Assembly: GCA_963779755.1 (NCBI GenBank)
Contig: CAVZZO010000003.1
Span: 832,001 to 896,000, forward strand
DNA from: an uncultured Gemmatimonadales bacterium
GTDB lineage: Bacteria; Gemmatimonadota; Gemmatimonadetes; Gemmatimonadales; GWC2-71-9
Length of the DNA stretch: 64,000 bases
Reading direction: 5' to 3'
The notes beneath the pieces were generated by a model that saw nothing but the letters and a program-made list of their open reading frames with translations, was not told the DNA's origin and searched no databases. A program made the translations under genes and the position numbers. This document shows, piece by piece, positions 1-8,985 of the stretch (its first letter is position 1; each line of letters opens with the position of its first letter).

Positions 1-306
1 AAGGCAGAAGGAACCTGCGCAGTCTGGAGCTGTTCCTCCGGGGACTGCGCGAAGGACCCGGCCTTGTATGGAGCATGCTGCATTGAAGTGGCAGAACCGG
101 GCCAGACAGGAGCACCCAAGCCGTCCTGTGGAGGGGGAGGCGGAGGGGGGGGTGGAGGGGAGCCTAACCCGACACTGGCATATTGCTGTAACCCAGCAAA
201 CTACTGGGATCCCTACTGTTATATCCCCTTCGGCTGCGGCTTCGAGCCCAACGGCCCACCACCAGAGCAAACAGGCTGCATCACGCCCATCTGTATCGAG
301 TACTGA
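1..306 (+). CDS. Cys-rich small protein A (5'-truncated by window)
   Basis: Frame open from base 1: KAEGTCAVWSCSSGDCAKDPALYGACCIEVAEPGQTGAPKPSC-G10-EPNPTLAYCC...PICIEY*. 12 Cys; the core is paralogous to the ORF at 3014-3367. Confidence 0.75.
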   Translation, partial: KAEGTCAVWSCSSGDCAKDPALYGACCIEVAEPGQTGAPKPSCGGGGGGGGGGEPNPTLAYCCNPANYWDPYCYIPFGCGFEPNGPPPEQTGCITPICIEY

Positions 307-432
307 TGGCAGGGCGCCAAGAACCGGCATCACTCAACAAGAACGCCGGTTCACCTTTCCGGGTGGTGGCGGCTCCCCCGCCACGGTAGGACAGCTCTAG
401 CTCGGAACTCCAGCGAGGCCTAGGTTAGAGAT

Positions 433-2832
433 ATGCTGTTTCGCTCTGTGGTCCTTTGCATAGTACTGCCGCTGGCCTGGAGATCTGTCGCCACGGCTCA
501 AGGCCAGGCTCATCTGACCGGAGACGTGCTCGAGATGCTCCGCGCCTATGGCAAGCAGACGCCTGAGCAGGTGACCACTCTCGCAGATTCTCTCGCCTTG
601 AAGGAGCGCAATACTCTCACGAGGGGCGTGCTTCTTTTTCGCTGTGCGCAGTTGACCGGGCGGATAGCTGAGTATGAGCGTGCCCTTACGGTCCTACACC
701 ACGCCGTTTCCGGGGACTCAGGCAACGCCCAGACGTGGTTTGCCGTGGCGCTCGTACGGCAGGCAATGGGTGACTCGGGCTTTCTGGCACGCCCAGGGCC
801 ATTGCAGCCCGTTGGGGCCAGCTGGCACGATGGAGCGGCGTACGCCTACCTGAAGGCACTGGAAGAGCAGCCTGACTTGGAGGCCGCGGCCGATTCGTTA
901 GCCGCTTTGCGGGATCGGGTGAGGTTACACCTTGACAGCAAAGATATCGTGCGCGGGCTGATATCGGCGGCGGCTCTTGAGGCCGCGAACCCGTCGCCGG
1001 GCCTGCTCCTGTCGATAGCCAGGGTCGAGGCCAGACTTGGCCAACTCGCGGAGGCGCAGGAAACCTACCGGCGTTTCCTCCGGGCTGGAGGTGACACAAT
1101 CCCCTTCACCCCGAACATCAGAGATGCCGACGACAGTAAGCGCCTCGCGATCTTCAGGGCCGATACAACGACTCATCCTCTTCCCGAGGTCCTCTACAGG
1201 CGTCTTCGCCTGGAAACCGATCTCAGGAACGAGGATTCAGCGCAGGCTGTCCTGAAGCGATACCTGGCGATGACCGCCGATACTGGCGTGGGGCTGTTCT
1301 TCCGCAGCCGCCTGGCCTGCCTTCTAGGAGACAGTTCCAGCATCGTTCCTTACTACTTCGCTGGTGCCGCACATATACGCAGCGAATGGGCACGCAGTCT
1401 CTATCGCGAGGACATCAGCTGGATCGCCGACCCCGCAGAGCTTTCGGCCTTTGACGGGACTCCCGCGGACGGCCTCTCGTCCTGGCTCCAGAGGTTCTGG
1501 AATCGGCGAGACGTTGCTGATGCCCAATCCCCAGGCAGCCGCTTGCGAGAGCATTGCCGAAGATACTTTTACTCGATGGAGCACTACCGGCGCTCCCCCA
1601 GGTCACGCACCCCAGCATGGTGGACTGTTCAGGGTAGAGCACTAGGCGAGGATACTAGCTCGGACGCTCCCATCGATGATCCGGCTCTCGCTGACCACTT
1701 GCCGAAGACGCTTCAATCAGCCGGCCCCCTGGTTGATGACCGTGGACTCGTGTATATGCGCCACGGTCAGCCGGATCAGATCCAGATTGAAGTTGTGGAC
1801 CACCTGACCGCAACCGGCATCGGGGGGGCCGTCGTCTGGCGCTATTTCCGCCCGACTGGGGATCTTATTCTGCAATTTGCGGATGTGCCATTCGATGGCA
1901 GCGCTGAGGCGACAGCTCTTTCACCCCTGATCGTCGCGCCCCATTCCCTTTGCGCCATGACCGGGGGCCTCGCCTGCAAGCTCACCTTGCCACGAGGCTC
2001 TCGCATTACAGCAAGCGACCTGAGCAGGGTTCGTCGGAAACTGTTGCAGAGTATCACCACTGCTCTCACGTCAGACGACCTCCGGCCGCACTTCGAGAAG
2101 AATGCTGCACCAGTCTTGGAGATCTATGGCGTTGGAGGAGACAGTTCAGGCGGCAGACTTCTTGCCGTCTTTGCAATGCCCGCGAAGGCGATTGTCCCCT
2201 CCAAGGTACCAGATGGCTATCTCTATCCGCTGAGGATCCGCCTTACCGGAGCCTCGCCCGACGGAAGCAACCTGACCAGCATCGATACGACAAGGTTCTA
2301 CTTCGTCTCGGCACCGTTGAAAGAGGACCAATACCTCTCCGGCTATCTCGAACTATCGGTATCGGCGGGGAGGTACAACACCTCATTGACCTTGTCTGAT
2401 TCGCTGGGGAGAGTCGGGAGGGCGGTCACCTATGACGGCGTATCCGTTCCTAATCTGACAACCAAAGAGATCGTCATGAGTGATCTGATCCTGGGCCTGG
2501 CCCCGCCACCGCTCTTCTGGTCTTACGAAAAGCAGCGCATCCCCCTGAACCCGCTGAATGCCTGGCCTGTTCACGGGGTGTTGGAACTCTTCTACGAGGT
2601 GGGAGGGCTAGTAGTCGGGCAGGGTTACACTACGGCAATCGAGATCCGGAAGGAAGGGCGCCCTCGTATCAGGGTCGAGTTCACCGAAGAGGCGGCAGCA
2701 GACCGGCAAGTCTTCCGCAGGACCATCAAGCTGGGGGACCTCTCGAAAGGCGATTACATGCTCGTAGTGACACTGAAGGATGAGAGACACCGTGAGGTGT
2801 CTAGCCGGGAACAACAGGTACACGTTCGGTAG
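433..2832 (+). CDS. Exported GWxTD-domain-like protein with TPR-like N-terminus
   Basis: Signal peptide, FWNRRD...RLREHCRRY and DDRGLVYMRHGQPD motifs typical of GWxTD domains, Ig-like C-terminus (MSDLILG, LFYEVGGL, GDYMLVVTLKD). Confidence 0.8.
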   Translation: MLFRSVVLCIVLPLAWRSVATAQGQAHLTGDVLEMLRAYGKQTPEQVTTLADSLALKERNTLTRGVLLFRCAQLTGRIAEYERALTVLHHAVSGDSGNAQTWFAVALVRQAMGDSGFLARPGPLQPVGASWHDGAAYAYLKALEEQPDLEAAADSLAALRDRVRLHLDSKDIVRGLISAAALEAANPSPGLLLSIARVEARLGQLAEAQETYRRFLRAGGDTIPFTPNIRDADDSKRLAIFRADTTTHPLPEVLYRRLRLETDLRNEDSAQAVLKRYLAMTADTGVGLFFRSRLACLLGDSSSIVPYYFAGAAHIRSEWARSLYREDISWIADPAELSAFDGTPADGLSSWLQRFWNRRDVADAQSPGSRLREHCRRYFYSMEHYRRSPRSRTPAWWTVQGRALGEDTSSDAPIDDPALADHLPKTLQSAGPLVDDRGLVYMRHGQPDQIQIEVVDHLTATGIGGAVVWRYFRPTGDLILQFADVPFDGSAEATALSPLIVAPHSLCAMTGGLACKLTLPRGSRITASDLSRVRRKLLQSITTALTSDDLRPHFEKNAAPVLEIYGVGGDSSGGRLLAVFAMPAKAIVPSKVPDGYLYPLRIRLTGASPDGSNLTSIDTTRFYFVSAPLKEDQYLSGYLELSVSAGRYNTSLTLSDSLGRVGRAVTYDGVSVPNLTTKEIVMSDLILGLAPPPLFWSYEKQRIPLNPLNAWPVHGVLELFYEVGGLVVGQGYTTAIEIRKEGRPRIRVEFTEEAAADRQVFRRTIKLGDLSKGDYMLVVTLKDERHREVSSREQQVHVR

Positions 2833-3013
2833 GACCGACGTACTTCAGCGATCCCGGCTGTTCTCGACAAGCGGCGCGTGTCGGAGAATCGGGGCCATGT
2901 GCGGTCGCAGTCGCGGCAGAGTGGCACGCCGCGCTTGATATGATTACGCAGGATGCCTCTTGTTCTACTACAGATAAGCGCCAGCAGGGAAGGAGGCGCA
3001 AGATGAGCGGGAG

Positions 3014-3367
3014 TTGTCCGCTCAAGCAAATGCTGGCCTGCTTTTCGCTCAGGTTCCTTCTCTTGCCTGCTGGCATTGCGAGAGCGGCATCTGTGGCAAC
3101 GATACGGCGATCTATGGTGCGTGCTGCACCCAGGCGGTGGACGAGGAGCATCCGTACCCCCAGCCGCGCCCATCCTGCGGCAGCACGCAACCCTACTGCG
3201 ATCAGTATCCTCCCCGCTGTACCGCCGGGCCAGAGTGCCGGAATTTATTGGTCCCCTCCTACTGTTACCATGCGAACCCTCTTGAAGCTTGCCTCGAGAA
3301 GGGGGAAGGGAACTACAACTACTGCCGCTTCAGAGTCTGGTATGATTACCCGGAATGCTTCTGCTAA
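3014..3367 (+). CDS. Cys-rich small protein B (start uncertain, possibly frameshifted from ATG 3003)
   Basis: CWHCESGICGNDTAIYGACC...PRPSCG aligns with protein A; 14 Cys. AGGAGG (2991-2996) plus ATG 3003 lie in a different frame. Confidence 0.65.
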   Translation: MSAQANAGLLFAQVPSLACWHCESGICGNDTAIYGACCTQAVDEEHPYPQPRPSCGSTQPYCDQYPPRCTAGPECRNLLVPSYCYHANPLEACLEKGEGNYNYCRFRVWYDYPECFC

Positions 3368-3386
3368 ACCAGGCCTAAGCACCAGC

Positions 3387-5532
3387 ATGAGCAGGGCAGG
3401 ACAACAGCAGCTGAGCCGGGGCTATACGCTCAAGCGACTGCTGGTCCGCCTTTCCCTCGGGTTCCTGCTCTTGGTTGGTAGCTGGGGAGGGCAGCTATCG
3501 GGGCAGGCCATCCCATCCCCGGACGGCTTGGGACAAACCCAATCAACACAGGAGAAAGCCAGGCTCCGCAGAGCAGCTGATTCGCTTCGCCAGGCCTTGG
3601 CTAGTTCCGCGCGGGTGTTGGAGCACGACCCGGACAATGCTGAGGCCTGGCTTCTTTTAGGTGTTCGCCGCCTGGCACTTGCGCGCCTCAGGGGCCCACG
3701 CGATACCCGGCCCTCTCCAGCCGGTCGGATCAAGCTATGCCAGAGGGGCTGCCGAAGCGTTCTTGCACACGCTGGAACTGGATTCGACCCAAAGTGAAGC
3801 GGCGCTCAACCTCCCGCTAGCGCTCGACTTGCTTCCTGCCTGGGTACCGTATGCCCGGGCACGGGATGCGCTTCGTCGGACCGCGGGAACGGAATCGGAT
3901 CACATCCCTTCGGTGCTGCTTGCCCGGGCGGGATACGAGCGGGAGACTGGGGCGCGTGATTCGACCATCGCTCTCCTCCTGCGGTACCTGAAGAACGGCG
4001 GAGACTCGGCAGTGGGAGAGCTGGAGCTCGCCCGGGAGTACTACGCCAGGGCCGATAGCGCGGAAGGCGCTGCGGCATATACACGTGGGGCTCATTTAGC
4101 GGGACGAACCCCGGAAGGCCGGGAGGCGTACCGAGCGCAACTGAGTCTGGTCGCCTCACCGCCTGAACTGGCTCGATTCGACTCTCTTCCGAGCGACTCC
4201 CTTGGCCCCTGGATCGAGCGGTTCTGGTCCCGCCGGGATGCTGAAGCGGGGCGTCCGGAGGGCAGTCGCCTGGCGGAGCACTACCGCCGTTACGAATACG
4301 CGATGAAGAACTTCCGGGCTGTTGTGCGCCGGCCACCCGGCGCACCGACGGTCGATGTCATGACCGCCGATGTAAACACCGGGGCATTGGATTCCATTAC
4401 CGAATCGGATGCACTGAGCCAGATGTTTGGGGACTCCGCTGGCGGGAATACGCTACTGTCGCAGCACCAGCTTCGCGGGGCAAGTGAACTTGACCCCCGA
4501 GGGCCGATCTATATCCGGCATGGCCCCCCGGATGATCGCGCCGGCGCTTGGTGGGCGTACTACCGCGGAGGGGGCAACTTCTATGTTCACGTGGTCCCCC
4601 CGAATGCCATGCTACCAGGCACCCGCTGCGATCTGGACCCCTGGTTCTGCTTTCCACCGACACCGCGACTGATCCAGTTGCAGAATGAGGCGCTGGATCG
4701 AATGGCCGTAAAGGCCCTGCGGACCGACGAATACCGGCCCTCCTACCGCCGCGCCATCCACCCAACGGTCCAGGTGTATGCGGTCCAGGGCCCCCCAGGA
4801 GACGGTGGAGGCCGCCTTCTTGCCGTCTTTGCCGTTCCGCAGGATGGCCTCGCCAAGCCTGATACCGTTAACGGCTTTGCCTATCCCATTCACCTGTATC
4901 TGGTGGCGAGCGCACCCGACGGGAGCCGGCGGGCCGACCTGGACACCCTGCGGACCTTCGTGACACGACAGCCCCTCCAGGGCGACGAGTACCTCACCGG
5001 GGTGCTGGAGTTGCCTGTGCGGCCCGGGCTGGTCAACGTCCGCCTGACCATCGCCCAGCCGGATTCCATCCATGCCCGGCCCGCCGACGCCCGGCCCGAG
5101 GTGACTGGAGACCGCGGCGCGCTAGTGGGGCGGGACAGCGTGCGCATCCCCGATCCCGGACGTTTTTCCCTGAGCGACCCGATCCTGGGCCGGAGCGGCG
5201 CCGGGCTGGTCTGGCATTCCCCCGAGGGGCCCGTCCCCCTCAACCCGCTGGGCGCCTTTCCCACCGGCGCCCGGGCCAGCCTCTACTACGAGGCGGCCGG
5301 GCTCCTTCCGGGAGCCACCTACCGCCAGCAGGTGGCCATTACCCCGGCCAGGGGCAAGGGACCCGGCATGACGCTGAGCTTCTCCGAACCCGCCACGGGA
5401 AGCCGACAGGCGTTCCTCCGGGCGCTCATTCTGAAGGACCTGCGGCCGGGCAGCTACACGCTGACGGTGACGCTGGAGGCGCCGGACGGGGCCCGCATCG
5501 CACGGACTACGCCGCTCAACGTGACGCACTGA
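3387..5532 (+). pseudogene. Second GWxTD-domain-like protein, +1 frameshift near 3684
   Basis: ATG 3387 frame gives a signal peptide and PDNAEAWLLLGVRRLALA. The next frame continues ASGAHAIPGPLQPVGSSY, collinear with paralog VRQAMGDSGFLARPGPLQPVGASW. Downstream motifs FWSRRD, EHYRRY, DPRGPIYIRHGPPD. Confidence 0.75.
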
Positions 5533-5642: not shown

Positions 5643-5981
5643 TCAGCTGGTGATGCTCTCCAGGGCCCGCCGCGCCTCGCGGGTAGCCCGGTTGAATTTC
5701 TTCTTGGCCTGACGCTGCCGCCGGCGGAACTGGTGACGGGCCGAATCGGTCCACTCAGTCACCTGCTCGCCGGCTTCATCGCGCAGATGGCGCGCCCCTT
5801 CGGCCAGCCTGCGGCGGGTCCGGTCGCCGCTGTCCGGGGCGAACAGCAGGGCCACCACCGCCCCCACCGCCGCGCCCGCCAGCAGCCCGAAGATCAGGTT
5901 CCGGGTGCCGTGGCTTTCTTCTTCCTCAATGTCCAGCTCGTCCTGCTCGTCGTCAGTGCGGTCTTCATGGTCGCGACCCAT
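5643..5981 (-). CDS. YtxH-domain protein
   Basis: FGLLAGAAVGAVVALLFAPDSGDRTRRRL motif; GGAGG RBS before ATG 5981. Confidence 0.85.
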   Translation of the reverse strand: MGRDHEDRTDDEQDELDIEEEESHGTRNLIFGLLAGAAVGAVVALLFAPDSGDRTRRRLAEGARHLRDEAGEQVTEWTDSARHQFRRRQRQAKKKFNRATREARRALESITS

Positions 5982-6117
5982 AGGCCCTCCTTTGGTCTCG
6001 TATGTGGAAGCTAGGCGATCGCCCCCGGGGTGAAAAGCGCCCCGCCGGGCCGCCTCGTAGCGTTCCTGGCGATCCTGGATAACTTTATCTTCATATCTCT
6101 CAATCCTGACCGGGCCT

Positions 6118-6895
6118 ATGACCACCGTCACAACGGGCGCTTCCGAAGAGAGCGAACGGCTCAACGCGAGAATCCACGCGCTGGAACACGAGCGGAAGCA
6201 TCTCCTGGCCATCATCGAGATCCTGCAGGAGATCTCCGGATCCCTCCATTTCACGGACATCGCGCAAACGGTTGCGCGAAGACTCGGTGAGGCCTTCGGG
6301 CTCGACCGCAGCTCGATCTTCCTGGCGGAGCGGGGCGGCCGCACCGTCCGACTGGTGGCGAGCTACGAAGATCCCAGCATCCGCAACTACATAGTGGACC
6401 TGGAGCGATACCCCGAGCTGCGCCGGGCGCTGCACACCGGCCAGACCGTCTTCATCCCCGATGCCGCCACCGATCCCGCGCTACAGCATATCCGCGGGGC
6501 GCTGGCCAACCGGAAGGTGAAATCCATCACGGTAGTGCCCATCACCTGGCGGGGTGTTGCCATCGGGGCTATCTACCTGCGCACCTTCCGCGATGGCCCC
6601 ACGTTCAGCGATTCCGATGTGCGCTTCTGCCAGGTGGTGGCCAGCCTGACGGCCAAAGCGCTGCGCAACGCCCATCGCTTCGAGCGGCTGCAGGAGCGCC
6701 GGGGCGACGCCACGGGCGACCGCATTCGCGAGCGCGAGCGGGTGGCCCTGCTGGGCTTCGTCCGCCGGCTGCTCAACTCCTTCGCCACCAAGGAAGGCCC
6801 CTGGGACGAAGGCCTGCTGGCGCGGGCCAGCGCCGAGGAGATCGACCGCCTGGTCGGGGTGGCGATGGCGGTGATCAGCCAGGAAGCGTCCGGAC

Positions 6896-6900
<5 letters not shown>
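6118..6900 (+). CDS. GAF-domain protein
   Basis: GAF-like pattern (DRSSIFL, TVFIPDA, SITVVPI, GAIYL, FSDSDVRF); no output domain recognised. Confidence 0.8.

Positions 6901-8985
<2,085 letters not shown>

Follow-up and report, generated by a model that had tools for sequence, protein, structure and literature searches.

We describe an array of four tandem three-gene units in an uncultured soil bacterium of the Gemmatimonadales, in which genes for a DsbA-like protein, a small cysteine-rich lipoprotein and a long GWxTD protein follow one another in that order. The array crosses the left edge of a 64,000-nucleotide stretch of the genome (contig CAVZZO010000003.1; G000:C3:832001–896000; hereafter the window): two units lie inside the window, and the array extends 9 kb leftward of it with two further units. 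The small open reading frames (ORFs) are genuine genes and define a lipoprotein family that has not been described, and their pairing with GWxTD genes is a conserved linkage rather than a local accident. We propose, with confidence a little above even, that the trio is a lineage-restricted envelope module of Gemmatimonadales that provides dedicated oxidative folding and a cognate partner of the GWxTD protein.

The units, here called A to D, were delineated from ORFs, whole-genome tblastn and blastn self-comparison (Table 1; the 15 kb upstream of the window are sequence L001, and a window coordinate equals the L001 coordinate minus 15000). Genes within units are separated by 19–126 nt or overlap, and pepC starts 129 nt left of the window edge. 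Only units B and C (two of the four) keep both an intact Cys-rich gene and an intact GWxTD gene; A and D are damaged, and unit D has no DsbA gene. A first-pass annotation of the window had described a two-gene cassette, a Cys-rich peptide followed by a GWxTD protein, occurring twice and perhaps continuing to the left. Both occurrences are present, the small proteins are paralogous (48% identity over 42 amino acids (aa), E = 2e-09, with the motif quoted for them), as are the diverged large ones (33% identity over 571 aa, E = 6e-73), and the upstream 15 kb hold two further units, two DsbA-like genes and an insertion sequence (IS) element. The pairing stands, but the products are lipoproteins of ~120–150 aa rather than peptides, and the unit has a DsbA-type oxidase gene as its third member. 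The second cassette is present but not an intact copy—pepD lacks the signal and lipobox, and gwD is frameshifted.

Table 1. Features of the array, in order from left to right.
Feature	Unit	Coordinates	Strand	Basis
DsbA-like 1	A	L001 6097–7014		Pfam
pepA, 5′ part	A	L001 6944–7109		ORFs, repeat structure
IS256-type element	A	L001 ~7110–8483 (G000:C3:824110–825483)		Transposase by Pfam
pepA, 3′ part	A	L001 8485–8820		ORFs, repeat structure
gwA	A	L001 8898–10979		ORFs
DsbA 3′ remnant (last ~350 nt of a DsbA gene)	B	Listed at L001 11135–11322		
pepB	B	L001 11323–11769		ORFs
gwB	B	L001 11796–13913		ORFs
DsbA-like 2	C	L001 13971–14942		Pfam
pepC, 144 aa	C	L001 14872–15306 (up to window 306; window 1–306 is the 3′ two thirds)	+	ORFs, family alignment
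gwC, 799 aa, intact	C	Window 433–2832	+	TIGR04514, TPR_14, AlphaFold2 model
pepD, 117 aa, core and C-terminal domain	D	Window 3014–3367	+	Alignments, DNA homology to unit B
gwD, N-terminal part (with start codon at 3387, the signal peptide and the initial TPR helices)	D	Window 3387–3689	+	Sequence, tblastn
gwD, remainder in the next frame (GWxTD domain, beta-sandwiches)	D	Window 3691–5532	+	tblastn, TIGR04514

We looked for homologues of the Cys-rich gene by a pattern scan of the GTDB species set and by searches of JGI metagenome contigs, of 400 genomes sampled from the phylum and of 400 genomes of the window's own family. The pattern scan found one locus (L010, in a metagenome-assembled genome of Gemmatimonadales) and the metagenome contigs yielded five; at least four genomes of the phylum sample had a match, each of them belonging to that same family, and at least seven of the family genomes carried a Cys-rich gene (lower bounds, because nine candidates were scored per genome in both 400-genome searches). 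Locus L038, from the family search, shares its ORF length and match coordinates with L010 and is apparently the same place, leaving 12 distinct external loci, whose neighbouring genes were assigned by tblastn and by profile hidden Markov models of the three families. In 11 of the 12, the gene immediately after the Cys-rich gene encodes a GWxTD protein; the twelfth locus (L025) is only 1011 bp long and does not reach far enough to show it. Immediately upstream, nine loci carry a DsbA-like gene, with Pfam confirming DsbA in six; L010 has no DsbA within ~1.1 kb, and L025 and L027 leave no room upstream. The genes flanking the trio vary by locus (rpsF/rplI, secA, dnaX, a Mur ligase and others). 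Identity between most loci is 20–35% for the GWxTD proteins and 31–56% for the Cys-rich domain, a divergence indicating that the linkage is old. Given that a genome holds only 1–11 GWxTD genes, adjacency in 11 of 11 informative loci—which are kin and not fully independent—is not due to chance. So far the module is known from a single family of Gemmatimonadales. Nor do GWxTD proteins in general have such a partner: GWxTD genes occur in 26 of 31 relatives, at 1–11 per genome, against the few family genomes with a Cys-rich gene. A single-protein search of 40 relatives gave no more than three matches, too weak to count (E = 6.5e-4 to 5e-3); the GWxTD tally and the genomes without a match in the 40-relative and 400-family-genome searches include the unpublished genome G014.

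Both complete DsbA-like proteins of the array matched PF13462 (75.8 and 78.3 bits; cut-off 23.2) and PF01323 (38.2 and 42.2 bits; cut-off 25.6), and both translations contain a CPFC motif (YQCPFCG), thereby combining a Thioredoxin_4/DSBA domain with a CxxC site. On this sequence evidence we assign them to the DsbA-type thiol:disulfide oxidoreductases, with oxidase activity predicted. DsbA-like 2 carries a lipobox (LALAAC). The genome has three more Thioredoxin_4 genes elsewhere, one directly before its only VKOR gene, which makes the array copies accessory.

The small Cys-rich proteins had no match in Pfam or NCBIfam. A profile of the four Cys-rich domains run against 1.84 billion cluster representatives retrieved 38 proteins at E ≤ 0.001; removal of pepB itself and of P0021, a 1650-aa CARDB-repeat protein rejected as a low-complexity false match, left 36 other related clusters with members of 86–176 aa. 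Ten clusters that were looked up have 1–3 members each, all metagenomic and either labelled 'hypothetical protein' or without a name. A word-based search with pepC found only three homologues. In the family alignment, all 34 members have a hydrophobic N-terminal signal ending in an invariant lipobox Cys (LVAGC, LLAGC, FAIGC and others; lipobox and type II signal peptide were assigned by pattern), the mark of a bacterial lipoprotein; pepD is without this part. A tether motif, [PTA][AP][IMV]-P-x-[FL], follows with its Pro invariant in 34 of 34, then a 6-Cys core (C..WSC....C..DP..YGACC......P.PSC) and a variable Cys-rich tail usually ending in FPEC; in pepC the lipobox reads LVAGC and the anchor Cys is followed by 12 more. 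The 34 members are acidic (11–21 D+E, 1–7 K+R). Pairwise ratios of non-synonymous to synonymous substitution (dN/dS) among the four array copies are 0.15–0.25 (0.16 for pepD versus pepB) at synonymous distances of 0.5–1.8, a sign of purifying selection at the codon level. The ESM Atlas, queried with pepC, gave best scores of 0.81 to unnamed lipoprotein clusters, a lead only, and a PDB sequence search with the family profile gave one match, a xylanase inhibitor at E = 0.2, taken as chance. A genome-wide count of Cys-rich frames was dropped because off-frame ORFs swamped it (662 matches).

The large proteins belong with GWxTD, as first annotated: gwC and gwD scored 30.8 and 34.5 bits against NCBIfam TIGR04514 (GWxTD_dom; cut-off 28), and gwC also matched TPR_14. 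In a six-frame search of the genome with TIGR04514, gwB reached 28 bits only together with neighbouring hits, and gwA (24.8) and gwC (25.1) fell just under the cut-off. Pfam PF20094 was not matched by gwC or gwD at E ≤ 0.1 or by gwA or gwB at E ≤ 0.01, and Pfam found tetratricopeptide repeats (TPRs) only in the large window proteins; two short (~500-aa) GWxTD paralogues of the same genome do match PF20094 (E = 7e-11 and 5e-07). Compared with other GWxTD proteins (TIGR04514, PF20094), those of the array are long (~700–830 aa) and low-scoring, and carry a TPR solenoid and two beta-sandwiches in addition. These proteins show (V/L/F)-D-D/P-R-G at an invariant D..RG..Y.RHG.PD block, which may correspond to the name-giving GWxTD motif; a wider block, FW.RRD ... 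EH.RR ... DDRG..Y.RHG.PD, is common to gwC, gwD and other paralogues. Arg, Asp and aromatic residues make up most of the invariant positions of the domain (F..W, R, D.RG, R.G.P, W.Y, D), accompanied by a nearly invariant E-H; there is no obvious catalytic triad. Paralogue dN/dS is 0.18–0.44. Eight further long GWxTD-like paralogues are encoded on C3 (near 227, 488, 582, 584, 587, 629, 631 and 633 kb); the two short canonical genes are on C1, and their neighbours show nothing conserved that informs. A fifth GWxTD copy of the A/B/D type, 64–70% identical and 250 kb away, lies at G000:C3:581448–583450 (minus strand) among three GWxTD paralogues; it matches in two frames, and so appears frameshifted, and has no Cys-rich or DsbA gene beside it.

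A word-based search with gwC found only five proteins at E ≤ 1e-10, and alignments for the fold models were therefore built from the loci. The AlphaFold2 model of gwC (21-row alignment; mean predicted local distance difference test (pLDDT) score 79.7, predicted template-modelling score 0.71) comprises a signal peptide, a TPR solenoid (~30–330), a GWxTD region (~334–556) of helices, a three-stranded sheet and long disordered loops, and two beta-sandwiches (557–677 and 678–799). Fold searches with the whole model returned TPR proteins at Z ~11–12.5, scores that are common for TPR repeats. The solenoid resembles PilF (2fi7_A; Z 11.3, root-mean-square deviation (rmsd) 8.6, 218 aligned) and PilW (2vq2_A; Z 11.2, rmsd 5.9, 180 aligned) by fold only; the match to TIGR02521 (PilW) is 19.5 bits against a cut-off of 154. 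The last domain resembles carbohydrate-binding and immunoglobulin-like sandwiches, with Z values common for beta-sandwiches, and is most like the Wzt carbohydrate-binding domain (6o14_A; Z 11.8, rmsd 2.2, 107 aligned, 20% identity), again by fold only. Unlike in Wzt and pilotin systems, gwC has no Pfam Wzt_C match and no pilus or O-antigen genes lie near the array; Pfam gave nothing for the gwC C-terminal domains at E ≤ 10. Foldseek matched the whole model only to tandem beta-sandwich look-alikes (transglutaminase C-terminal barrels, RbmA; TM ≤ 0.22). The GWxTD region modelled alone scored at best a VIA Z of 2.8 against 48,161 chains, and Foldseek returned nothing for it at E ≤ 0.001; these results are limited by the moderate model (17 rows, pLDDT 65.5, disordered loops).

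In the mechanism that we favour, the first gene encodes an accessory, lipid-anchored, predicted DsbA-type oxidase, the second a small, very acidic lipoprotein consisting of a flexible tether with the invariant-Pro motif, the 6-Cys core and the variable Cys-rich tail, and the third a Sec-exported TPR–GWxTD–double-beta-sandwich protein. After export, the dedicated DsbA would introduce the 5–8 disulfides of the lipoprotein—a step suggested by established DsbA biology and known accessory DsbA–substrate pairs—and the folded, membrane-anchored lipoprotein would then act as the cognate partner (tether or ligand) of the neighbouring soluble GWxTD protein. To judge by their conserved adjacency, the lipoprotein probably binds the GWxTD protein; as a guess, the linear motif of the tether might dock into the TPR groove. 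The location and function of the putative lipoprotein–GWxTD complex are inferences, and the carbohydrate-binding-like last beta-sandwich of the model allows a guess at a cell-surface or polysaccharide-related role. Co-folding of pepC 24–144 with gwC 24–799 scored 0.00 in a run without controls and counts neither for nor against binding. Matches to Plug, TonB_dep_Rec and CarboxypepD_reg were absent from the array and seven related loci, giving no sign of a TonB or SusC–SusD-like system.

A different arrangement, in which DsbA and the lipoprotein form an enzyme–substrate pair and the GWxTD protein is just a co-transcribed neighbour that has its own envelope function and makes no contact, retains a real though minor share of probability. 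The two-gene unit would then have been inserted before, or lost from, various GWxTD genes, which accords with the many GWxTD paralogues that have no pair and with the scatter of paired among unpaired proteins when 18 long GWxTD proteins (11 with and 7 without the pair) are placed on a maximum-likelihood tree (quick search, LG+G4). Repeated insertion by chance is nevertheless unlikely without a functional reason, given a GWxTD gene downstream in 11 of 12 loci despite only 1–11 such genes per genome.

Several observations weigh against the three-gene module that we prefer. The paired GWxTD proteins are not one clade (approximately unbiased test, p = 1.7e-07), and the paired protein of locus L039 groups with this genome's unpaired 584-kb paralogue as its sister (SH-aLRT 100). 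Well-supported branches force at least three changes of pairing state; two long-branch joins in the tree are unsafe. None of the eight further long paralogues, nor either of the two short ones, adjoins a Cys-rich homologue, and the module is rare (at least 7 of 400 family genomes, at least 4 of the 400 in the phylum sample). The Cys-rich gene is broken in units A (split by the IS element) and D (5′-truncated), in L010 and L022 (frameshifts) and in L039 (cut), and the GWxTD gene is broken in unit D (two frames), L022 and L040 (several frames); some of these breaks may be assembly errors. Within A, B and D the nearest neighbours differ by gene: pepA with pepB, but gwB with gwD. Distances between Cys-rich proteins and between GWxTD proteins co-vary across 10 cassettes (Mantel r 0.84, with 7 of 5000 permutations as high), which shows that units diverge as units, not that the proteins touch, and is to be expected whenever neighbouring genes are duplicated jointly. 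The lack of monophyly indicates that GWxTD proteins work without the lipoprotein or that the lipoprotein is often lost; the unpaired paralogues and the repeated loss of the pair suggest that it is an optional accessory rather than a core subunit. A bolder version of the favoured mechanism—the lipoprotein as the first physical partner of a GWxTD protein, anchoring it through the Pro motif in the TPR groove, each unit a cognate pair with a specificity of its own, and the whole a new modular, expendable cell-surface device of Gemmatimonadota—is tentative, and we regard it as less likely than not.

The damage to individual units is of several kinds, and the low dN/dS of the broken copies indicates that it is recent. 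In unit A, pepA is interrupted by a 1.4-kb element encoding a Mutator/IS256-type transposase (PF00872, E = 2.9e-80). Pieces of this element recur at 91–100% identity at ~1503.7 and ~1546.9 kb of C3 and at ~509.3 and ~951.6 kb of C1; with near-identical stretches at four other sites in the genome, it seems to have been active recently. DNA homology of pepD to unit B is limited to window ~3071–3220 and begins at the Cys core, signal, lipobox and tether being missing; it is probably a recently truncated copy. The gwD ORF was listed as 623 aa (window 3661–5532) with its N terminus in another frame: tblastn with gwB places residues 39–92 at window 3507–3689 and residues 93–704 at 3691–5526 (83% identity), and one extra base next to a run of G4/C3 shifts the frame between 3689 and 3691. 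The shift may be genuine or may come from the assembly; among public metagenome contigs matching parts of the stretch, none spans the site near 3690. At L039 1897–4323 (G552:C5, minus strand), truncation of the Cys-rich gene after the GACC motif has left an open frame of 809 codons that continues into the GWxTD gene. The latter still has its own Met and signal peptide, and the arrangement resembles the leftover of a deletion more than a functional fusion.

Among the GWxTD genes of A, B and D, synonymous distance falls from ~1.7 in the 5′ half to 0.2–0.5 in the last beta-sandwich domain, and ~150 nt after the GWxTD stop codon are also conserved between units. The falling 3′ distance, together with the discordant nearest neighbours, suggests gene conversion between units at their 3′ ends. 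The trio also stands in short arrays in other genomes, at L020 4009–4905 and 8825–9813 (G172:C39) and at L023 2156–4468 (G124:C25), where more whole or partial GWxTD genes lie directly before or after it; one 3′ fragment is nearly identical to the full downstream copy.

Two further readings of the Cys-rich protein itself differ from a disulfide-bonded partner. With 10–16 Cys in ~100 residues of an acidic protein, the Cys could bind metal or do redox chemistry, as in a metallothionein-like or copper-handling lipoprotein whose Cys are reduced or shuffled by the thioredoxin-fold protein. We consider this improbable. The number of Cys after the anchor is even in 34 of 34 members (10–16, mostly 12), and extra loops bring Cys in pairs (14 in pepA and pepD against 12 in pepB), the signature of a fully disulfide-bonded domain; this pattern fits the adjacent oxidase, a member of the DsbA-type (CPFC) family, and seven related loci have no metal transporter or chaperone genes nearby. 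About as improbable is the reading that the Cys-rich protein is secreted and acts as an antimicrobial or in the manner of a polymorphic toxin, the GWxTD protein being its immunity, processing or export partner, a role that the first-pass annotation had offered in part. A conserved core with a variable C-terminal part, tandem arrays with diverged copies and cassette GC content at third codon positions (GC3) below that of the flanks (0.61–0.75 versus 0.85–0.91) would suit such a factor. Against it, every family member is lipid-anchored, dN/dS is well under 1 in the core as well as in the tail, and an exported protein of 700–800 aa is atypical for immunity. In addition, neither the array nor the 73 ORFs of seven related loci (Pfam, E ≤ 1e-05) contained a known toxin domain, a modification enzyme, an ABC exporter or any peptidase, including a leader peptidase, and no processing, export or immunity genes lie nearby; lipoproteins of 120–150 aa in such a setting do not resemble ribosomally synthesized and post-translationally modified peptides or bacteriocins. 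The lower GC3 and the IS element fit a dispensable, fast-turnover locus. That the small ORFs are chance open frames has next to no probability, since although GC-rich genomes carry many spurious Cys-rich frames, these have 36 related clusters with invariant Cys columns, dN/dS of 0.15–0.25 and a conserved position between the same two families.

Accessory DsbA proteins that serve particular substrates are known from other systems. SrgA, which is plasmid-borne in Salmonella, acts on the PefA fimbrial subunit. AssT has been described as a native substrate of DsbL, an accessory DsbA paralogue (PMC6067686). As in the DsbL/DsbI–AssT and SrgA systems, the array has an extra DsbA-family oxidase beside a Cys-containing exported protein, separate from the DsbA–VKOR pair. 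Unlike in those systems, the presumed substrate is a new small lipoprotein family with 5–8 disulfides, the oxidase itself has a lipobox, and the unit includes GWxTD as a third conserved gene; unlike in DsbL/DsbI–AssT, no dedicated DsbB/DsbI-like gene adjoins the array DsbA. A literature search on Cys-rich lipoproteins with DsbA in Gemmatimonadetes found nothing relevant. The three-gene module has not been described previously and provides both a new lipoprotein family, absent from Pfam and NCBIfam, and the first candidate partner for the long GWxTD subclass. GWxTD is a widespread exported domain without a published function—no paper in the literature searched contains the name or either of the accessions TIGR04514 and PF20094, in agreement with the first-pass annotation—or a solved fold match, and a small, easily expressed, chemically distinctive neighbour offers a concrete handle on the long subclass. 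The array may also add a case of a substrate-linked accessory DsbA outside Proteobacteria. Its significance is tempered by the rarity of the module, its restriction so far to one Gemmatimonadales family and its frequent decay.

A promoter and terminator scan of the array found no more sites than in shuffled sequences (2 versus 1.8 and 3 versus 7.4, respectively). To the right, the array is bounded by ordinary genes: a small protein that is YtxH-like by eye (window 5643–6344, minus strand; acidic N terminus, one hydrophobic helix and basic tail), an ORF taken by eye for a GAF-type protein (window 6118–6900, plus strand) and an NAD-dependent DNA ligase gene (window 6976–8985). Window 288–5467 is patchily matched, exactly, by short contigs of one public soil metagenome run (X1), indicating that this organism or a near-identical strain was present in that sample at low depth.

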